A stretch of DNA of 64,000 nucleotides, taken from Dehalococcoidia bacterium. GTDB lineage: Bacteria > Chloroflexota > Dehalococcoidia > CAUJGQ01. Below the pieces are notes generated by a model. The model was not told the DNA's origin. It saw only the letters and a list, made by a program, of their open reading frames with translations, and did no database searches. Below, in pieces: positions 3,545 through 63,354 of this stretch. The translations under genes and the position numbers were made by a program. Every line of letters starts with the position of its first letter. Within the stretch, counting starts at the first letter, position 1. The stretch is taken from the NCBI GenBank assembly GCA_035310145.1, contig DATGEL010000030.1, positions 3,419 through 67,418 of the forward strand, read 5' to 3'.

Positions 3545-3646
3545 ACAACGCTCCTCGAACAGCCGGCGCCGGCCGCGGTTCTGCATGGTCAGCGTACGCC
3601 AGCGGCAGCGCCTCGCGCTCGCGCGGCCATCCATCGGTGCGCGGCG

Positions 3647-3696
3647 CGCGTATCATCACGCGTATCATCACGCGTATCATCACACGCGTATCATCA
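3647..3696. repeat. tandem repeat CGCGTATCATCA x4 (12-mer; 2-nt insertion before last copy) in divergent intergenic region
   Basis: Direct reading shows copies at 3647-3658, 3659-3670, 3671-3682 and 3685-3696. The repeat lies 26 nt upstream of the ATG at 3723. Confidence 0.9.
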
Positions 3697-3722: not shown

Positions 3723-4286
3723 ATGGCAGCACAGGCACTGCGGCCCGGCGATGCGGCGCCGGATCTGGAGGTCGATCGCGCGGACGGCACGCCGCTTGCG
3801 CTCTCCGCGCTGTGGCGCGAGCGGCCGGCGCTGCTGGTCTTCCTGCGCCACTACGGCTGACCGTTCTGCCGCGAGCTGGCCGCGCAGGTGCGTGGCGAGA
3901 TCGGCGAGCGCGACGATGTCGGCGTCGCGCTGATCACGATGGGCAAGCCGGCGCAGGCCGCGGAGTTCTGCCGCGAGCAGCGGCTCTCCTACACCTGTCT
4001 CTCGGACCCGGCGCGGAACAGCTACCGCGCCTTCGGTCTGCGCCGCGGCTCGACGGCCGATGTCATGGGGCCGGGGCCGATGCTGGCCGGGCTGCGCGCG
4101 GCGAGCAAGGGGCACTTCGTCGGCCGGCCCGTGGACGACGTCTACCAGCTCGGCGGCAGCTTCCTGGTCGATACCGCGGGCCGCATCGCCTACGCGCACT
4201 ACCCGCGCCACGCGGGCGACCAACCGGCGGCGGGCGACCTGAAGCGGGCGGTCAGCCGGCTGCTCGACCGCGGCGGAGCGTCCTAA
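3723..4286 (+). CDS. peroxiredoxin-like (AhpC/TSA/redoxin, PRX_like2-type) thiol:disulfide oxidoreductase with in-frame TGA at 3858-3860 (candidate selenocysteine, U-P-F-C motif)
   Basis: ATG 3723 has AGGAG 6 nt upstream. The translation is MAAQALRPGDAAPDLEVDRADGTPLALSALWRERPALLVFLRHYG-[TGA]-PFCRELAAQVRGEIGERDDVGVALITMGKPAQAAEFCREQRLSYTCLSDP...GSFLVDTAGRIAYAHY. The TGA sits exactly where this family has the first Cys of CPxC. GC3 is high on both sides of the TGA. A stem-loop (CUGC-C-GCG [AGCUGGC] CGC-GCAG) lies 6 nt downstream of the TGA. Confidence 0.6.
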
Positions 4287-12053: not shown

Positions 12054-12229
12054 CGGAATCCCTCGTGCGTGCGGCTGAAGGCGTGCTGCAAGTAAACAGC
12101 AACATCATACACGCCGCCGCGCCGCCTGGATCGCCGCCGTTGTCTTCACCAACAGGAAACAGGGAGCGAGGAACGAGGAGCGAGGAAAGAGGAAAGAGAG
12201 CACAGGGGTTAGGGATGGGAGCCTAACCT

Positions 12230-12700: not shown

Positions 12701-12925
12701 CGTGTCTCCGCGGCCGCTCGGCCCCGCTGTGCGTCCAACGGCACCGGCTGCCCTCCGCCATCGTACTGCGCCGGCAGCCATGTCGGCGGCCCTGGCGTGC
12801 TGGCATCTGGCCTCGGAATCCGGCAGGCGTGATACGGTTTGACACCCCGGCGCGCCCTTGTAACGATGACCGTGGAGGCGGGCAAACGGCCGCTGCCATC
12901 CCAGCACGAACAAGACAGGCCAGCG

Positions 12926-12958
12926 CCTGACGCCAGTTCCTGACGCCAGTTCCTGACG
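12926..12958. repeat. tandem repeat CCTGACGCCAGTT x2.5 (13-mer) upstream of ACAD gene
   Basis: Direct reading shows copies at 12926-12938 and 12939-12951, with a partial copy 12952-12958. The repeat ends 14 nt before the ATG at 12973. Confidence 0.85.
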
Positions 12959-35772: not shown

Positions 35773-36681
35773 CTACGTGCCGGGGTGGTAGCAGAAGAGG
35801 TACTTGTGATCCGGCTCGATACTGATATCGAGCTGGATGTCCGGTGTGCTCGGCTGCTCGAACTGGATATGCAGCGTGTAGGTACCCGGCGCCATCGAGA
35901 AGGGGAACGACGCGGCGCCATCGCAGCCGCCGGCGCCGCCGCTCGGCGCCACCGCGCCGGAAACGCCGTCGCCGTTGGTCAACGGGTCGCCGTTGGTGTC
36001 GGTTTGCCGCAGGCCCACGATCAGCGGCGCATCGCTGGCGTTCTGGAAGACCACCAGCCCCTGCCCCAGGTTGGGCGTCGGCCCGGCGTCGCAGCAACCC
36101 GGCCAGTTCACGCCGCGGAACTGATCGCCTTCATAGCCCACGGACACGGGGCCGGAATGGGTATCGTTACATACCCACGCCGCCCGGCCGATGCCGATCA
36201 GATCGGTTGGCACGTAGTCGTTCAACGTGACGGAGAACTCAAACGAGCGGTCGGCGCCGCGCACCCGCGCCGAGCCGCGTGTGCTGGGGTTGCCGACGAG
36301 CACGCACTCCCCGGCCGAGACGTTCACCCTGGTGGAGTCCTGATCGCTGATGTCGAGCAGCACGTTGAAGCGCTTGGTGACATGCAGCCAGTACCCGTAG
36401 CCGCCCTGGGCCTTGCTCGGGTCGCTGGCCTCGTAGTTGCTGTCGCCGGGGCGCCAGGTGAAGAGGGCGTTGTCCGACGACTGCTGGATCACGTTGCCGC
36501 TGTAGTCGCCGCCGCCGGCGAAGGCGACGAGGTTCCAGCCGGGAATGAAGGTCACGTAGGCGAACTGCGCCGGCGCCTGGGCGCGTGCCGGCTGCCGCCC
36601 CATGACGCCGGCCAGCGCGACCGCGGCAATCACCATTGCCAGGCCGAGCCTGATCGTGCGGCCATGCAGTCGTCCGCTCAT
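35773..36681 (-). CDS. secreted hypothetical protein (signal peptide, Cys-rich, ~302 aa)
   Basis: Start at MSGRLHGRTIRLGLAMVIAAVALAGV (ATG 36681, AGGGAGGG upstream). The Ala/Pro-rich upstream ORF extension is rejected. Confidence 0.65.
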   Translation of the reverse strand: MSGRLHGRTIRLGLAMVIAAVALAGVMGRQPARAQAPAQFAYVTFIPGWNLVAFAGGGDYSGNVIQQSSDNALFTWRPGDSNYEASDPSKAQGGYGYWLHVTKRFNVLLDISDQDSTRVNVSAGECVLVGNPSTRGSARVRGADRSFEFSVTLNDYVPTDLIGIGRAAWVCNDTHSGPVSVGYEGDQFRGVNWPGCCDAGPTPNLGQGLVVFQNASDAPLIVGLRQTDTNGDPLTNGDGVSGAVAPSGGAGGCDGAASFPFSMAPGTYTLHIQFEQPSTPDIQLDISIEPDHKYLFCYHPGT

Positions 36682-36700
36682 CGGTCGCGCACCCTCCCTT

Positions 36701-36718
36701 GTAGATGTAGATGTAGAT
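36701..36718. repeat. tandem hexamer GTAGAT x3 in promoter region of secreted-protein gene
   Basis: Read directly. It lies 20 nt upstream of the ATG at 36681 on the minus strand. Confidence 0.8.
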
Positions 36719-36847: not shown

Positions 36848-39800
36848 TTAGCGGCCGGTGCTGAAGCCGCCGTTGGTGCCGCCGGTTGTGCCGCCGCCGG
36901 TGCTGAAGCCGCCGTTGGTGCCGCCGGTTGTGCTGCCGCCGGTGCTGAAGCCGCCTGTGCTGCCACCCGTGGTGCCGCCGGTGCCCGAGGTTGACGGCAC
37001 GCCGGTCGAGCCGCTGGTCCCCGTGGCGCCCGAAGTCGAGGGCACGCCGGTCGTACCGGTCGTTGCCGGCCGGCCGGTGGTGCCGCTGGTGCCGGAGGAT
37101 GAGGGCACTCCGGTCGTGCCGGTCGTCGCCGGGCGGCCCGTGGTGCTCGGCGGCGGCGCCTTGCGCGCCTTGGCGGCGGCGTCGCTCAGCGATGCGGCCG
37201 TGGGCAGCGCGTTCAGCGGATCCGCGGGGGCCAGCGTGGCTTCGTCCACGGCAAAGGTCACGTCGTCGCCCGCCTTCAGGTCGGCGAAGGCGACGTTGGC
37301 GTCGTATTTGGTGCTGCCGCCGACGGCCACGGCCGTGTAGCTGCCGTCCGCGCACTGCGCCTGCAGGGCCGAGCCGCCCAGCGCCGTGATCTTGCCGCTC
37401 GTGCAGTTGAGCGCGAGGCTGTGATGTCCTTGCTTGAAAGTCCTGGCGCCGGCGTCCCAGGTCAGGATCTCGTCGAACTTGCCGATCGGCTGGTCGTAGC
37501 CGCCGTTCACGCCGCTGTCGCCGGAGGCATAGGCATTCTCGATGATGTGCACGCCCTGCGGCTTGCCGTCGGTCAGCTCGACCGTCGCGCCCGGCGTCGT
37601 CTGCAGGTCGAAGTCGAGCGCCACCGGTTTGGCCGCGTCGTCGAAGCTGAAGGCGACCAGGCGTCGCGTGCCCTTCTCGTCGAGGATGATCGAGGCGAGG
37701 CCGTGCGGCGGGCCGTTGTCGATCAGCGGCTGCACCAGCAGCGCTTCGACGTTGGGAAAGCACTGATCGCCGCTCTTCTTCACCGCCGGCAGCAGCGCCT
37801 TCTCCGCCGAGGGTTGCTGGGTCGCGTCCCAGACCGACGCCCACTTGCCGCTCTTGTCGGGGCGGTAGACGTCGATATACGGCCGCTGGCAGCCGCTGCT
37901 GTCCGGCGCCTGGCTTTGCAGCACGAGCTGGCCGGGATCGCCGGCATTCTTGCCGGCAACGACGAAGCTCTGCAGCCTGGTTGCGTTCGGCCGCAGCAGC
38001 GTGGCGACGTCAAGCTTGTCGGCGGGCGTCACGGTGGGCGCCGGCGTCGGGCTTGCCGTGGGGCTTGGCGACGGTGAGGCGGTCGGGTTCGGCGTGCTCG
38101 ACACGGCCGCGGTTGCAGACGCGGTCACGTTCGCCGCCGTGGTCGTGGGCGTCGGCCTGGGGCTCGACTTGCCGCCGGCCACGGCGAAGCGGATGCCCAC
38201 CCCGGCCGCCACGAGCAGCACGGCGGCCAGCGCCAGCGGCCAGAGTCGCTTGATGCCGCCGCCGGTCGCGGGCTCGGGCGCCGTACGTCCGCCCACGGCG
38301 CCGCCGCGGCCGGCGGCGCCGCCCGCTCCGGCCAGTGCCGCACCGCCGCCTGCGCCGGCCGCGGCGGCGCCGTCCGCGGACCGGCGCGGCTCGTCACGCC
38401 TGGGCAGCGGCACGTACACCGTCTGCTGCTCGTGATCGTCCACCGCCGGAGGCGACACCGGCGGGCGCACGTAGCGGGCCTCTTCACTTTCGGCGATCCC
38501 TTCGATGACGCCGGCGTCGCGCGCGGCGGGCCGAATGCCCGGCGTGGCGTCCGCGGGCGCGGGCAGATCGACCACCGTGGTGTCGGCCGCGGGCGCGAAT
38601 GGACGTGATGGTGTCAGCGGCTCGGCCAGCGTCGGCTCGGGCGGAGCTGGCGTGCGCACCTCCGGCAGCGTCGGCTCGGGCGGAGGCGGTGTGCGCGGCT
38701 CATAAAGCGTGGGCTCGGGCGGGGCCGGCGTACGCGGCTCGTAGAGGGTTGGCTCGGGCGGCGCCGGCGGCGTCGCCGGGCCGGGCGTGCGCTCCTCGAC
38801 GATCGTCGCGTCGGCGGGCGGCGCGGGCGTGAGCGCTTCCGGCTCGGCCTGCGGGCGGCCGAGCGAGGCCGGCGTCAGCGGCTCGATGATCGTGGCGTCG
38901 AGCGGGGGATAGGCGGCGGCGCTGGCGGCGGACAACTCGCCCTGCTGCAAAACCTCGGCGAACTCGCGCCCGCTCTGGAAGCGATCGTCCGGGTTGCGCG
39001 CCAGACCGCGCAGCACCAGCTCGTCGAGCCAGGCGGGAATCGCGGGGTTGCGCGTACTGGGGCGGGGAATCTCGCCCTCGAAGGCGACTTCCGAGAAGAC
39101 CTGGAAGAAGCGCAGCTCCTCCAGCACGGGCGTGCTCTCCGCCCGCGACTGCGCCAGCTCGCGACACTTCTGGATGTTGACGTAGAACGTGCCGGTGAGC
39201 AGCTCGAAGAAGATCACCGCCAGCGAGTAGAGGTCGGAGCGGTGGTCGATGCGCCGCCCCGACGCCTGCTCGGGCGACATGTAGATCACGGTGCCCGGCT
39301 GGAAGCCGGTGCGCGTCATGCTCAGGTAGCCGCCGACGGCCTGGGGAATATGCGCCACGCCGAAGTCCGCGACCTTGGGCGTGCCGTCCTCCATCAGGAA
39401 GACGTTGCCGGGCTTGAGGTCGCGGTGCACAATGCCGCGCTCGTGTGCGGCCTGCAGGCCGCGGGCGATGCCGGTGGCGATCGTGATCGCCTGCTGCAGC
39501 GGCGGCCGGCCGCGCTGCAGAAACCCCTTGAGGTCGCCGCTTTCGGCCAGCTCCATCACGAGCAGATAGCCCTCTTCGTAGGGCTCGATCGCGTGGACTT
39601 CGAGGATATTGGGGTGGCGCACGCGCAGGCCGAGCCGGCCTTCGGTCAGGAAGCGGCGCAGCGCCTCTTCCTGCTGCGTTTCGAGATCGGCGGAGTCAAG
39701 GCCCAGCTCTTTGATGGCGACGAAGCGGTCGGCCAGCTCTTCGTGCGCCTTGTAGACGCTGCCGAAGGTGCCGCGCCCCAGCAGGCCGTCGCGGCGGCCT

Positions 39801-39853
39801 TCGCTGCGCAAAATGCGGTACTTGTTGAGCACCAGCTCGTCGAAGGGGAGCAT
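36848..39853 (-). CDS. serine/threonine protein kinase (Hanks-type) with Pro-rich repeats, TM segment, large extracellular domain and Gly/Thr/Ser-rich repetitive C-terminal tail
   Basis: Start at MLPFDELV (ATG 39853). Kinase motifs are GRGTFGSVYKA, HRDLKPGNVFL, DFGVA and SPE. The Pro-rich repeat is PAPPEPTLYEPRTP, repeated. The TM helix is LALAAVLLVAAGVGI. Confidence 0.9.
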   Translation of the reverse strand: MLPFDELVLNKYRILRSEGRRDGLLGRGTFGSVYKAHEELADRFVAIKELGLDSADLETQQEEALRRFLTEGRLGLRVRHPNILEVHAIEPYEEGYLLVMELAESGDLKGFLQRGRPPLQQAITIATGIARGLQAAHERGIVHRDLKPGNVFLMEDGTPKVADFGVAHIPQAVGGYLSMTRTGFQPGTVIYMSPEQASGRRIDHRSDLYSLAVIFFELLTGTFYVNIQKCRELAQSRAESTPVLEELRFFQVFSEVAFEGEIPRPSTRNPAIPAWLDELVLRGLARNPDDRFQSGREFAEVLQQGELSAASAAAYPPLDATIIEPLTPASLGRPQAEPEALTPAPPADATIVEERTPGPATPPAPPEPTLYEPRTPAPPEPTLYEPRTPPPPEPTLPEVRTPAPPEPTLAEPLTPSRPFAPAADTTVVDLPAPADATPGIRPAARDAGVIEGIAESEEARYVRPPVSPPAVDDHEQQTVYVPLPRRDEPRRSADGAAAAGAGGGAALAGAGGAAGRGGAVGGRTAPEPATGGGIKRLWPLALAAVLLVAAGVGIRFAVAGGKSSPRPTPTTTAANVTASATAAVSSTPNPTASPSPSPTASPTPAPTVTPADKLDVATLLRPNATRLQSFVVAGKNAGDPGQLVLQSQAPDSSGCQRPYIDVYRPDKSGKWASVWDATQQPSAEKALLPAVKKSGDQCFPNVEALLVQPLIDNGPPHGLASIILDEKGTRRLVAFSFDDAAKPVALDFDLQTTPGATVELTDGKPQGVHIIENAYASGDSGVNGGYDQPIGKFDEILTWDAGARTFKQGHHSLALNCTSGKITALGGSALQAQCADGSYTAVAVGGSTKYDANVAFADLKAGDDVTFAVDEATLAPADPLNALPTAASLSDAAAKARKAPPPSTTGRPATTGTTGVPSSSGTSGTTGRPATTGTTGVPSTSGATGTSGSTGVPSTSGTGGTTGGSTGGFSTGGSTTGGTNGGFSTGGGTTGGTNGGFSTGR
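36858..36980. repeat. in-frame 42-nt tandem repeat x3 encoding GGTTGGTNGGFSTG-like units at the kinase C-terminus
   Basis: Copies at 36858-36899, 36900-36941 and 36942-36980 are near-identical. Confidence 0.8.
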
Positions 39854-40103
39854 GACCGCCTCAACGATCGGAACGCCGCTACGCCCCCGCCTTCGCCTTC
39901 GCTGGGGAACACGGTTAGCGTATCGATCGTGCCAATTCCGTGTCAACGCCGTTGCCGGCGCGCACAACGGTTCCTGCCGTGCCGGCAAAGCGCGGGCGGG
40001 CGCGCCCAACGCCGCGGCGCAACCGCTCTTATAAGTATGAACGCGACCGGACCGGCGATTGTGCGCGCGGACACGGCAGCGGGTGGCAGGGGCCGAGCGC
40101 CCG

Positions 40104-45928: not shown

Positions 45929-46935
45929 CCGGCCGCAGCACCCGCCGCAGCCTTGCCGCGGAAGGCGAGCGCCTCGCGCTGCCCGACGGCTTCAGCGTCG
46001 ATCAGGGCGCGATCTTCCCGTGCGCGGACGCCACCGAGCGCGTGCAGGCCGAGCCGGGCCGCCTGATCGCGGCGGTGTGCATGGCCGCCGCGCACGGGCT
46101 ACACGTCGGCCGCGAAACCGCCGATCTGCTCACCGCGGGCGCGCCCGCGCTGCGCGGGCTGCCGCCGGCGCGGCGCGGTGAGCTGCTGCTCGAGCTCGTG
46201 CTCTGCCCGGTACCCGATGCCGCCGTCGATCTGGCGCAGCGCGCCGGGTTGCTTGGGCAGATCCTGCCCGATATCGATCGCCTGCGCGCCATGCCGAAGG
46301 GGCAGGGGCGCTACAAGGACGTCTACGTGCACACGCTGCGCGTGCTGGCGGCCACGCCGGCCGACCCGATCACGCGCGTCGCCGCGCTGCTGCACGACAT
46401 CGCCAAGCCGGACACGCTCGTCTCCGAGGGCGGCCTGGTGCACTTCCCCAACCATGACCTGCTGGGCGCCGATCGGTCCGAGCGGCGGTTGCACGGGCTC
46501 GGCTTCGACGCAGCGTTCAGCGCCGCCGTGGCCACGCTCGTGCGCCTGCACCTGCGCACCAACAGCTACGAGCCGAACTGGACCGACAGCGCCGTGCGCC
46601 GCCTGCACCTCGACGCGGGCGAGCACTGGCAGCGGCTGCTCGACCTCTCGGACGCCGACGTGACCAGCGCCCGGCCGGAAGTCGTCGCGCGGGCGCGCCG
46701 CCGCGTGCAGGCGCTGGCCGAGCACGCCCGGTTGCTGGATCAGCCGGTCGAGGTCTCGCCGCTGGACGGCACGGTGCTGATGCAGCGCTTCGGCCGCGGG
46801 CCGGGCCGCTGGATCGGCGAGGTCAAGCGCGAGCTGATCGCCCGCGTGCGCGAGGGCACGCTCGATCCCGCGGATCACAAGGCGGCCTGGCGCATCGCCG
46901 CGGAGGTCGTGGACGCGCTGCCGGCCGGGGAATGA
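45925..46935 (+). CDS. HD-domain protein resembling the neck/body + HD region of CCA tRNA nucleotidyltransferase, lacking the N-terminal Pol-beta head domain
   Basis: High GC3 runs from TTG 45925, which overlaps the TGA of the upstream gene as TTGA. RYKDVYVHTLRVL...LLHDIAKP is the HD motif. RLIAAVCMAAAHGLHVGRETADLL resembles the CCA-enzyme neck. No GGxVRD/DxD head is present. Confidence 0.5.
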   Translation: MTGRSTRRSLAAEGERLALPDGFSVDQGAIFPCADATERVQAEPGRLIAAVCMAAAHGLHVGRETADLLTAGAPALRGLPPARRGELLLELVLCPVPDAAVDLAQRAGLLGQILPDIDRLRAMPKGQGRYKDVYVHTLRVLAATPADPITRVAALLHDIAKPDTLVSEGGLVHFPNHDLLGADRSERRLHGLGFDAAFSAAVATLVRLHLRTNSYEPNWTDSAVRRLHLDAGEHWQRLLDLSDADVTSARPEVVARARRRVQALAEHARLLDQPVEVSPLDGTVLMQRFGRGPGRWIGEVKRELIARVREGTLDPADHKAAWRIAAEVVDALPAGE

Positions 46936-46951
46936 GGCGAAGCGTTCGGCC

Positions 46952-47227
46952 TTAGCTGGGGCTCGACGTGGCCGTGCGCCGCGACGGCCGGCGCTTGAAC
47001 TCGACCAGCCGGTCCAGGCGGTCGAGCTTGGCGGCGAAGCCGCTGCGCTCCCAGTTGTAGCGCGCGACCGTGCTGCCCGCCCAATAGTGCGCCAGCCAGG
47101 CGCTCGGTGGCAGCGCCGCGCCCAGGATCTCCTCAAGCTGGCGGAAGGTGAGCTGGATCGTTTGCTGATCTGACGAGAGGTCTTCGAGGTAGCGATTGAG
47201 CGGCAGATACTTGCGTGCTGGCGGCAT
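46952..47227 (-). CDS. hypothetical protein (91 aa)
   Basis: Start at MPPARKYLPLNRYLEDL (ATG 47227, GAGGTGGAG upstream). It is divergent from purQ. Confidence 0.55.
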   Translation of the reverse strand: MPPARKYLPLNRYLEDLSSDQQTIQLTFRQLEEILGAALPPSAWLAHYWAGSTVARYNWERSGFAAKLDRLDRLVEFKRRPSRRTATSSPS

Positions 47228-47356
47228 CGACTGTACTCCACCTCGGGACGGGACGAATGGACTCCAGGCTAATCTTTCAGAACCGACCCATACTGTCAAC
47301 CCTCAATCGCAACTCGACAGAACGTGGGCTTGCTGCCGCGCGCCGCCGTCTCCGAC

Positions 47357-47410
47357 AATGAGTCCGATGAGTCCACTGAGCCCGATGAGTCCAATGAGTC
47401 CAATGAGTCC
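47357..47410. repeat. tandem 9-mer (A/G)ATGAGTCC x6 in divergent promoter region upstream of purQ
   Basis: Units at 47357, 47366, 47375 (variant ACTGAGCCC), 47384, 47393 and 47402. The repeat lies 40 nt upstream of the purQ start. Confidence 0.9.
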
Positions 47411-47450
47411 AGAACTGAGCATAGCAACGGGTTGCGCGTGGAGGTAGCCG

Positions 47451-50737: not shown

Positions 50738-51088
50738 GTGAACGCCTTTGTCGTCCTCGCGGAGCCCGCGCGCCGGCGCCTCCTCGACGCCTTGCTTCAA
50801 GGCGAGCGGCCGGTGAATGAGCTGGCTGAGCAGCTCGGGATCAGTCAGCCGGCGGCCTCCAAGCATCTGCGCGTCCTCAAGGATGCGGGGATGGTGAGCG
50901 CCCGCGTCGATGCGCAGCACCGGCGCTACCGCTTGGAGCCCGCGGCCCTCGCCGAGATCGATACCTGGCTCGCGCCGTACCGGCGCCTGTGGACAGGGCG
51001 GCTGGCTGCGCTGGAGAGCTACCTGGACAGGCCGGACCGGCCGGACCGGCCGGATTGGAAGGAAGCCGATGAGCGACGGCACGATTGA
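50738..51088 (+). CDS. ArsR/SmtB-family metalloregulator-type transcriptional repressor
   Basis: RRRLLDALLQGERPVNELAEQLGISQPAASKHLRVLKDAGMV is the winged HTH. The C-terminus contains RPDRPDRPD, encoded by a (CCGGAC)n repeat. Confidence 0.85.
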   Translation: MNAFVVLAEPARRRLLDALLQGERPVNELAEQLGISQPAASKHLRVLKDAGMVSARVDAQHRRYRLEPAALAEIDTWLAPYRRLWTGRLAALESYLDRPDRPDRPDWKEADERRHD

Positions 51089-61675: not shown

Positions 61676-61711
61676 TTACACGCCTACACGCCTACACGCC
61701 TACACGCCTAC
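61676..61711. repeat. tandem 8-mer TACACGCC x3 + TACACGCG + TACA immediately upstream of the prolyl oligopeptidase start
   Basis: Read directly. The repeat begins 10 nt upstream of GTG 61666 on the minus strand. Confidence 0.9.
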
Positions 61712-62021
61712 ACGCGTACAGAAGACTGCACATCCGGCCCGTCGCCCCGCCACTGAGGGTGCTCTGGCGCCAAACCTCACTGCCGAAGCCGGGGCGGTGC
61801 GGGTATGCCCGCGGCAGCGTCGCGGGGCGTGTCCTCACTATAGCGGCCGGCTGGAGCCGCCCGCGAAGGGTAAGCGTTCGGGAACGGCGCGGCGATCGTG
61901 GGCCGAATGTGCTTAAGGAATCTCCCCGCCATCCCGAAATTAGCAACAGGACACGGCGATCCTAAGCCAGTGGGGCCAGGGAAATCGTCGCGCCGAGATA
62001 TTTATGGGGAAGGGTTCTGCA

Positions 62022-62213
62022 ATGTCGTTGGTCGATCGCTTTCTCCTCCGCGCCGTCGCCGCCGCGTATCAGCCGCGTGGTGACGAAGAGGGCCAGGGCC
62101 TGGCCGAGTACGGCCTGATCCTGGCGCTGATCGCCGTTGTTTGCGTGGCGGCGCTGACCCTGCTCGGCGGCAACATCAGCAACACGCTCAACAGCATCGC
62201 CGGCAGCCTCTAA
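62022..62213 (+). CDS. flp: Flp/Fap family type IVb pilin
   Basis: MSLVDRFLLRAVAAAYQPRGDEEGQGLAEYGLILALIAVVCVAALTLLG has the canonical Flp motif. ATG 62022 lies 7 nt after GGGAAGGG. An AT-richer promoter-like region is upstream. Confidence 0.75.
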   Translation: MSLVDRFLLRAVAAAYQPRGDEEGQGLAEYGLILALIAVVCVAALTLLGGNISNTLNSIAGSL

Positions 62214-62218
62214 GGCAC

Positions 62219-62284
62219 GCAACGCCATGCACAAGGAACCGGAGGCCGCTATGCCGGCCTCCGGTTCCTTGTGCATGGCGTTGC
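62219..62284. terminator. 30-bp perfect inverted repeat with 6-nt loop between convergent flp and menA-like genes (bidirectional terminator-like hairpin)
   Basis: The left arm 62219-62248 is GCAACGCCATGCACAAGGAACCGGAGGCCG, the loop is CTATGC, and the right arm 62255-62284 is its exact reverse complement. No U-tract follows. Confidence 0.7.
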
Positions 62285-62303: not shown

Positions 62304-63200
62304 TCAGTGCGGCACGACGAGACCGGCAACCAGCCCCGCGGCCAGCAGGGCGCCGAAGCGCATGTGCAGCTGCGCCGTGCGAAAGAGCACGTAGTTGAGC
62401 TTGCGCGGCTCGCGCGTGCGCGCGGTGAAGCGCACGGCCCGCAGCGCCGCCGGCAACGTGAGCAGGGTGAGCAGCACCGGCCAGGGCGCCACGCGCGCCA
62501 CCACCATCACGATCAGCGAAGCGTAGGCGGCGCCGATCAGCAGGTAGTACTCCCAGTTGGCGGGGCGCCGGCCGATGATCGTCGCCAGCGTGCGCTTGCC
62601 GTGCCGGCGGTCGTCCTCGATGTCGCGCAGGTTGTTGGCGTGCAGGATCGCCGTGACCAGAAAGGCGATCGGCAGCGAGACGATGAACGGATCCCAGCTC
62701 CAGTGCGCCGTCTGCACGTAGTAGGCGCCCATCACCATCACCGGCCCCATGAACACGAACACGGTCAGCTCGCCCAGGGCGATGTAGGCGAGCGAGATCG
62801 GCGCGCCGGTGTAGAAGAAGCCGGCCGCCACGCTCGCCAGCCCAAGCCAGAGCAACGGCAGCCCAACCAGCGCAACCAGCGCCAGCCCGCACAGCGCCCC
62901 CGCCGCGAAGCAGGCGATGCCCAGCCGCAGCACCTCGCGCGGCTTGATCAAGCCGCGCCGGATCGCGTTGCTCGGGCCGAGCGAATCCGGCCCGTCCACA
63001 CCCTTGACGTGGTCGTAATAGTCGTTGACCAGGTTGGTGCCGGCCTGGATCAGCACCGAGCCGAGCAGCGCCAGCAGGAAGTAGAAGGGATTGAACGCCT
63101 TCGGCGCGGCGACGAGCGTGCCGACGACGACCGGCACGATCGCCGCCGTGAACGAGAACGGCCGGGCGGCCCCGAACCACAGCTTCACGCGCGGACTCAT
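62304..63200 (-). CDS. menA: UbiA-family prenyltransferase, 1,4-dihydroxy-2-naphthoate octaprenyltransferase (MenA)-like
   Basis: Start at MSPRVKLWFGAARPFSFTAAIVPVVVG (ATG 63200, GGGAG upstream). The Asp-rich motif is NLVNDYYDHVKGVD. Confidence 0.8.
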   Translation of the reverse strand: MSPRVKLWFGAARPFSFTAAIVPVVVGTLVAAPKAFNPFYFLLALLGSVLIQAGTNLVNDYYDHVKGVDGPDSLGPSNAIRRGLIKPREVLRLGIACFAAGALCGLALVALVGLPLLWLGLASVAAGFFYTGAPISLAYIALGELTVFVFMGPVMVMGAYYVQTAHWSWDPFIVSLPIAFLVTAILHANNLRDIEDDRRHGKRTLATIIGRRPANWEYYLLIGAAYASLIVMVVARVAPWPVLLTLLTLPAALRAVRFTARTREPRKLNYVLFRTAQLHMRFGALLAAGLVAGLVVPH

Positions 63201-63354
63201 GGCTCTCCCCTTGCCCCGGCAAGCACAGCGCCCGGTTCTCTGCCCCGGCTCGCGCGCCGGCGCCGGCCACATCGTACGCGGCCCTCGCGTTTGAAGCGAG
63301 TGTTACAACTGTGATACCTTCGGCGCGACGTAACGCCCGCAGGCGGGGGGCAGG

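Follow-up and report, generated by a model that had tools for sequence, protein, structure and literature searches.

Short tandem repeats that stand immediately in front of genes can be read as regulatory elements or as passing products of DNA replication, and the 64-kb stretch of DNA analysed here (the window; 70% GC) poses this question at five places, each with a repeat unit of its own. An earlier note on this DNA had offered iterated operator sites or slipped-strand switches as the possible roles of these arrays. We ask here what the arrays are, how they came to lie where they lie, and whether they are likely to serve the expression of the genes that they precede.

All five arrays, R1 to R5, were recovered by Tandem Repeats Finder (TRF) and direct inspection of the window, at or close to the places where the earlier note had put them. 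R1 (3647-3696, + strand) consists of four copies of CGCGTATCATCA, the last of which is 14 nt long through two additional nucleotides (CA), and it ends 26 nt before the ATG (3723, +) of an AhpC-TSA_2 gene; the region is divergent, with a His_Phos_1 gene on the other side (ATG 3544, -). R2 (12926-12958, +) is a perfect array of 2.5 copies of CCTGACGCCAGTT, 14 nt from the ATG (12973, +) of an acyl-CoA dehydrogenase (ACAD) gene. R3 (36700-36718, -) is likewise perfect, with 3.2 copies of TGTAGA (ATCTAC x3.2 on the sense strand), 18 nt from an ATG at 36681 (-). R4 (47356-47411, +) holds 6.2 imperfect copies of CAATGAGTC with 82% matches and lies 39 nt from the GTG (47451, +) of purQ, while R5 (61677-61720, -), with 5.5 copies of TACACGCC (GGCGTGTA x5.5 on the sense strand), lies only 10 nt from the GTG (61666, -) of a prolyl oligopeptidase (POP) gene. 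The match level reported by TRF ranges from 82 to 100% across the five arrays, and their perfect cores were confirmed by a perfect-repeat detector. Hence, the repeats are real and 5' of genes throughout, at measured distances of 10-39 nt from the start codons where 10-40 nt had been claimed; for R5 alone the earlier count of four units at 61676-61711 was a slight underestimate. Each unit is private to its own locus, as had also been maintained, and the periods are 6, 8, 9, 12 and 13 nt. None of the five arrays lies within an ORF, and those of R2 (aaggtgg), R3 (agggaggg) and R5 (aaggaa) directly adjoin a Shine-Dalgarno (SD) sequence.

The gene names given earlier are borne out by the Pfam families of the called downstream genes, which are AhpC-TSA_2 for R1, acyl-CoA dehydrogenase for R2, GATase_5 (purQ) for R4 and Peptidase_S9 for R5. 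The product of the R3 gene matches no Pfam family and has a signal-peptide-like N-terminus, marking it as a secreted protein. Except for this secreted protein, to which no function is assigned, the downstream genes do not belong to the surface, host-interaction or restriction-modification classes.

The ORF that lies directly upstream of the R3 gene (36848-40009, -; 1054 amino acids) contains long in-frame tandem repeats of a different type, a 42-nt unit in three copies at 36854-36980 and a 39-nt unit in 3.7 copies at 38627-38769; it probably encodes a repetitive protein that is secreted or located at the surface. Between a Flp/Fap pilin gene (62022-62213, +) and a UbiA gene (62304-63272, -) the window carries a perfect 30-bp inverted repeat with a 6-nt loop (62219-62284), the stem of which is unusually long for a terminator hairpin.

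When searched with the detector for perfect repeats (period 5-15, at least 2.4 copies, at least 18 nt), the window yielded R1-R5, all of them intergenic, one in-frame 9-mer in coding DNA at 51030-51054, and nothing else. Dinucleotide-preserving shuffles lead one to expect 0.05 such matches within intergenic segments and 0.18 across the window as a whole, and the intergenic density is thus about 100-fold above the shuffle expectation. The 12.7 kb counted as intergenic is an overestimate from a crude GC3-based gene map that under-called genes and mis-called 46099-47241, and the enrichment estimate is therefore conservative. Composition is a weak null, however, because slippage makes repeats in every genome, and a comparison with other bacterial loci is more modest in its outcome. 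Control high-GC loci contain 6 matches in 288 kb, or 1.33 per 64 kb (P(>=6)=0.0025), and the remaining control loci 15 matches in 678 kb; with either control rate, about 1.3-1.4 per 64 kb, the probability of at least six matches is about 0.003. The density of the window is hence about 4-fold that of the other bacterial loci sampled, in keeping with the earlier remark that five such repeats in 64 kb of a high-GC genome are unusual. Close relatives carry one such repeat in about 47 kb, as compared with six in the 64-kb window, a difference that is not significant on its own.

The coding 9-mer is part of an in-frame array of 3.3 copies of the 9-nt unit GGACCGGCC (51025-51054) near the 3' end of a gene for an ArsR/HTH_20-type regulator (50738-51088). 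It is the sole perfect short tandem repeat in the coding DNA of the window, and since it keeps the reading frame, it fits the removal of frameshifting arrays by selection.

The nearness of the arrays to the start codons was assessed by a hand calculation in which a random position within each array's own intergenic region served as the null and the results were combined by Fisher's method. This gave p ~0.08 for the five arrays and ~0.05 when a sixth case, found in the relative L170 and described below, was added; it is thus suggestive of a closeness to start codons beyond random placement. The clustering on the SD side may reflect no more than constraint acting on the promoter and on the first part of the leader, or it may be due to weak selection or to a mutational hot spot at this site.

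To what extent are the arrays unstable? Copy numbers were compared with one other assembly per array, ERZ27279678 (ENA) for R2, R4 and R5 and SRR5579859 (Logan) for R1 and R3. Three contigs of ERZ27279678 (L001, L002 and L003) cover 21.3 kb of the window and differ from it by 3 SNPs and a single indel, which corresponds to exactly one 8-nt unit of R5. There are five full GCGTGTAG/A units in the window and four in L001, within identical flanks; contig k141_2495426 of this assembly is shorter by that one unit and shows no other indel in 7410 aligned nt. R2 and R4 are identical in ERZ27279678. The three arrays compared in this way make up 0.6% of the compared sequence, yet hold its sole length change, and we regard this single-unit indel as a signature of slipped-strand instability. 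R1 and R3 are unchanged in SRR5579859, whose contigs (L004, L165) match the window without a single difference over about 7.7 kb; this data set is perhaps the window's own source. The slipped-strand instability that had been proposed for the arrays is therefore seen in R5, which differs by one unit between two near-identical populations, but not in R1-R4, each of which is invariant in one assembly. When JGI metagenomes were scanned with the POP protein, no near-identical strain was found, only loci at 84% and 70% identity.

All compared sequences are metagenome assemblies with MEGAHIT-style contig names, and one might therefore suspect the repeats or the R5 copy difference to be artefacts of short-read assembly. 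We hold this to be extremely unlikely. At 19-56 nt, the arrays do not reach the length of a read or of the final k-mer that the 'k141' names imply, and the 44-nt length of R5 in particular argues against an assembly artefact; moreover, R1-R4 each recur in identical form in a second assembly (SRR5579859 for R1 and R3, ERZ27279678 for R2 and R4), and the R5 difference is a clean single unit within near-identical flanks.

The position of the arrays relative to the promoters could be judged from alignments with orthologous loci, from which the promoter-like boxes discussed here were taken; a strict sigma-70 promoter scan around all five repeats returned no promoter, the conserved boxes included, and these boxes are referred to here as putative. 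Close homologues carry the names Dehalococcoidia or Tepidiforma, and the nearest genome match, with 84% protein identity in POP, is a MAG labelled 'uncultured Chloroflexi bacterium'. Upstream of the POP gene, a -10-like box TATAGT (61837-61842, -) lies within the conserved 11-mer CCGCTATAGTG, about 115 nt upstream of R5, and would mark the promoter of this gene. This 11-mer precedes the start codon by about 170 nt in the window, by 70 nt in L085 and by 31 nt in L086. R5 itself is absent from L005/L085 (POP 84% identical at the amino acid level) and from L086 (70%), loci at which the synteny or the gene is retained. In front of the ACAD gene, the promoter-like sequence TTGACA-N17-AACGAT (12839-12867, +), again a putative promoter, is located about 60 nt upstream of R2. 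It is conserved in L168 (ACAD 90% identical), where it reads TTGACA-N18-AAAGAT and where the start of the leader, GGCAAACGG.CGCTG, is kept; R2 is absent from the L168 leader, the remainder of which cannot be aligned.

A comparable array was found in the relative L170, in which 3.6 copies of GCCAGCAGGG adjoin the SD sequence 15 nt before the ATG of an alcohol dehydrogenase gene. P0247, the synteny of which differs at the target locus, supplied the locus orthologous to that of the L170 repeat (L173); the repeat is absent there and the upstream promoter-like box gggctaggctacgctgcgtg is conserved. At the R2, R5 and L170 loci, the stretch from the box to the SD sequence cannot be aligned across species, and its length varies by as much as about 100 nt, which indicates a leader that is free to change. 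Since conserved promoter-like boxes stand upstream of them, R2 and R5 would fall within the 5' leader and not in the -35/-10 spacer; as far as the sequence comparisons allow this to be judged, they are likely to be transcribed as part of a leader, beside the SD sequence.

A further 5'-side repeat that did not figure in the earlier note is an imperfect, pyrimidine-rich array of 7-mers, CTCTTTCCTCTTTCCTCGCTCCTCGTTCCTCGCTCC, at 12154-12198 (sense strand -), which precedes the GTG (12053) of a Ser/Thr kinase gene (918 amino acids) by about 100 nt; the CCUC motifs of this array could pair with the GAGGG Shine-Dalgarno sequence of the kinase gene. Short repeats were also seen in other loci. In Saprospiraceae and related Bacteroidota, 7-13-nt repeats (mostly 7-8 nt) lie a few tens of nucleotides past the POP match, with units that differ from locus to locus (GTTAATT, ATGTTGG, ATATGCTG, GTCAGTA and others), a parallel case of private units on the 3' side; examples are L015 5067-5102, L025 5043-5061, L031 5043-5068 and L052 5049-5104, and further ones L023 5111-5144, L099 3543-3568 and L151 3549-3604. 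The end of an Anaerolineales (Chloroflexi) contig (L016, 6850-7023) carries three copies of the 21-mer GTGGCTTATGGCCTATCGCTC, followed by about 12 copies of CCACTCC.

R1 differs from the leader arrays in that it contains -10-like boxes itself, four copies of TATCAT at 3651-3656, 3663-3668, 3675-3680 and 3689-3694. This hexamer fits the TAnnnT pattern of -10 elements and resembles the other conserved boxes (TATAGT, AACGAT, AAGATT, TACGCT). At the orthologous locus L169, which has the same gene order, a histidine phosphatase with 88% amino acid identity and split AhpC-TSA_2 calls, a single copy, GCGTATCAT, is found exactly at the position of the array start and 29 nt from the ATG; the alignment of the two loci has a 38-nt gap that faces the three extra units of R1. 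R1 is thus best read as a putative four-fold tandem copy of a -10 region; the DNA upstream of its first copy would be the ancestral one, and its last copy would stand at the original distance of 28 nt from the ATG. The junctions between the units form ACGCGT palindromes. Outside R1, a -10-like box TACGCT (3591-3596, -) may serve the divergent histidine phosphatase gene; the sequence 'cagcgtacg' is conserved between the window, L169 and L170, the last of which is not syntenic.

The AhpC-TSA_2/peroxiredoxin-like gene that follows R1 (3723-4286, +; 2670-3230 in L169) contains an in-frame TGA at 3858-3860 within the motif HYG*PFC, and gene callers split it into products of 45 and 131/132 amino acids. 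L169 keeps both the TGA and the motif around it, which is consistent with a selenocysteine (U-x-x-C) redox site. There is no tRNA gene within the window and hence no tRNA-Sec.

R4 begins at the conserved sequence cGACAATGA, in which GACAAT (47354-47359) is a possible -10 element. The loci L166 and L167 (purQ 90% identical at the amino acid level) have this sequence in common with the window, together with the promoter-like block of a divergent DUF7662 gene, but at the site of R4 itself they carry only a degenerate, ATG-rich stretch, CAATGACGATGTCGACCATGCCGATGCCG. The DUF7662 block, a putative promoter that is not part of R4, reads TTGACA-N17-AAGATT in the window (47271-47299, -) and TTGACA-N17-AACGTT in L166. 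R4 could also be taken for an upstream ORF encoding the leader peptide MSPMSPLSPMSPMSPMSPELSIATGCAWR, the translation of which would be coupled to that of purQ. Its frame is open at 47360-47447 (+), its period equals three codons, and three of the four kinds of difference between its units are synonymous in this frame (CCG/CCA, AGT/AGC); furthermore, the stop codon TAG (47445-47447) lies 3 nt before the GTG of purQ and overlaps the SD region of this gene. However, the synonymy is judged from four substitutions only, none of the ATGs is preceded by an SD sequence, the third-position GC content is low for this genome, and in L166 the matching ATG frame enters purQ out of frame and specifies an unrelated peptide. 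We therefore consider a leader peptide at this site very unlikely.

The arrays are thus evolutionarily transient, as R5 and R2 are absent from the orthologous loci, R1 is present there in single copy and R4 in degenerate form. According to the earlier note, a lack of the arrays at orthologous loci would speak for neutral slippage products; such a lack is what R2 and R5 display, and R1 and R4 do so largely. Perfect or near-perfect copies in combination with unrelated unit lengths of 6, 8, 9, 12 and 13 nt point to recent, independent origins. We consider it probable that the arrays are independent, young duplications of the VNTR/long-unit SSR type, made by slippage and kept where extra length is tolerated. 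In such a course of events, tandem duplications would be seeded by short direct repeats (TGTAcgcgTGTA can still be read at the 5' edge of R5), and the resulting arrays would be made, and subsequently expanded or contracted, by slipped-strand mispairing during replication. They would survive where length is unconstrained, that is, in the variable leader just 5' of the SD sequence (R2, R3, R5 and probably R4); R1, in which a 12-nt duplication would run across a -10-like TATCAT box, would be the exception. Their direct effect would be a leader that is longer by about 12-48 nt or, for R1, a multiplied -10 box, and any effect on expression would be a by-product, although one that could act as a graded 'tuning knob'. 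The repeats themselves, their instability, their lack at orthologous loci and their place relative to the conserved boxes are observations, from which the slippage mechanism, the promoter role of the boxes and the near-neutrality of the arrays are inferred. Against this explanation stand the restriction of copy-number variation to R5, the clustering on the SD side (p ~0.05-0.08), which could reflect selection for function and not mere tolerance, and the roughly 4-fold excess in density, for which neutral slippage alone does not account.

A rival reading assigns the arrays a selected function, in which the gain and loss of units in the leader (R2-R5) or in the promoter (R1) would tune translation or transcription, as at contingency loci, and in which the lineage would keep the arrays for the sake of this variability. 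The one-unit difference of R5 between populations would be expected of such loci, as would the arrays' distance of 10-39 nt from the starts, with R2, R3, R5 and the L170 repeat adjoining the SD sequence (p ~0.05-0.08), and a density about 4-fold above the controls. There is a precedent in the hmw genes of Haemophilus influenzae, in which repeat number has a graded effect on transcript level (PMC2424069). RNA folding of the leaders with 0-10 copies predicts, moreover, that the accessibility of the R5 SD sequence alternates, with 0.26 at four copies and 0.55 at five; the predicted effects are small and non-monotonic for R2-R4, however, and the outcome is so strongly model-dependent that we do not count it as evidence of function. 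Against this reading, copy numbers are low (2.5-6, whereas hmw has 9-28), and the arrays precede genes of ordinary metabolism (purQ, ACAD, POP, a peroxiredoxin-like protein) and not genes for the cell surface or for host interaction; orthologous loci do not keep the arrays, and four of the five show no variation. A selected tuning function is thus conceivable but unlikely. It is more doubtful still that the lineage systematically generates and keeps locus-private repeats directly 5' of the SD sequences of ordinary metabolic genes, and occasionally over -10 boxes, as heritable and rapidly adjustable rheostats of translation or transcription; if true, this would amount to a contingency-locus strategy in a bacterium that is free-living, not pathogenic and of 70% GC. 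In classical phase-variable promoters, homopolymer or dinucleotide tracts in the -35/-10 spacer switch the promoter on and off by changing the spacer length. The arrays described here share with these tracts a slipped-strand change near a promoter, but the conserved promoter-like boxes precede R2 and R5, and what R1 copies is a -10-like box with its flank and not the spacer; the proposal of a promoter-spacing switch is therefore not upheld. Judged by the putative promoter positions, none of the arrays has the placement typical of contingency loci, within an ORF or in the -35/-10 spacer.

Iterated operator sites for transcription factors, the other role that had been proposed, would be direct repeats near promoters, and the ACGCGT palindromes at the unit junctions of R1 could be taken in the same sense; if so, some protein would bind the TATCATCA or ATGAGTCC arrays. 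The units are mutually unrelated, however, and no unit reappears elsewhere in the intergenic DNA of the window. Searches for the units across the 64 kb, with 1-2 mismatches allowed, gave only the arrays and scattered single matches with 1-2 mismatches, and no shared regulon motif; for R1 and R5 it is the arrays that account for the excess over shuffles, and for R2 and R3 five extra matches each were obtained above the shuffle mean. Periods of 6, 8, 9, 12 and 13 nt do not hold sites on one face of the helix, and R2 and R5 are downstream of the conserved promoter-like boxes. Perfect copies imply that the arrays are young, and perfect copies that are missing or single at orthologous loci are the opposite of what conserved operators would look like. 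Private units, unphased periods, youth and absence from orthologous loci thus tell jointly against the operator proposal, and we regard it as highly improbable. Nothing in the whole window matched Rfam at the gathering threshold; the repeats therefore belong to no known RNA family.

We return, then, to young duplications made by slippage, an established kind of unstable DNA. Intergenic long-unit SSRs and VNTRs were surveyed by Huang & Mrazek in 2014 (PMC4060949), and those with units of 5-9 nt were discussed by Rehm et al. in 2015 (PMC4692102). R1-R5 belong to this known kind and do not constitute a new regulatory system, as they share with it perfect or near-perfect, head-to-tail units of 6-13 nt, a concentration in intergenic DNA, fast turnover and, for R5, a change by a whole unit; they depart from it in their density (about 100-fold over intergenic shuffles and about 4-fold over the sampled genomes) and in the position of all five 5' of genes. 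Other intergenic repeats form families built on a single motif, such as GGGAATC in Xanthomonas and GGGGA(C/T)T in Nostoc (PMC4692102) or TAACTGA in the Beggiatoaceae (PMC4679880). For GGGAATC, 117 Xanthomonas intergenic regions were examined, most of which lie between the same genes in related species (PMC4692102), and 169 sets of TAACTGA are found in a Beggiatoaceae draft genome (PMC4679880). These families resemble the arrays of the window in their short intergenic tandem units and in a non-random distance to the neighbouring ORFs, but they place one motif at many loci, whereas here each locus within 64 kb has a private unit and the arrays are not conserved.

In terms of function, R2, R3 and R5 would find their closest parallel in the hmw1A and hmw2A genes of nontypeable H. 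influenzae, upstream of which the number of 7-bp repeats is inversely correlated with the transcript level (PMC2424069). As in hmw, the repeat stands between a promoter-like box and the start codon (R2, R5 and L170) and, for R5, the number of units varies. The hmw arrays comprise 9-28 copies, control surface adhesins in a pathogen adapted to its host and persist from strain to strain (PMC2424069), whereas the arrays of this free-living soil bacterium comprise 2.5-6 copies, precede metabolic genes and are not kept at orthologous loci.

Only two points are, in our view, worth following, namely the multiplication of the -10 box in R1 and the clustering beside the SD sequence. R1 would represent a natural tandem multiplication of a core promoter element and hence a test case for the influence of multiple -10 boxes on start-site choice. 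The clustering on the SD side, should it prove to be genome-wide, would point either to weak selection on the length of leaders in GC-rich genomes or to a mutational hot spot at this position. Neither of the two would change current understanding much. If the arrays are slippage products only, they would offer an ordinary example of the turnover of 5' leaders in a high-GC Chloroflexi genome, and would at the same time provide ready strain-typing markers for uncultured soil Dehalococcoidia.
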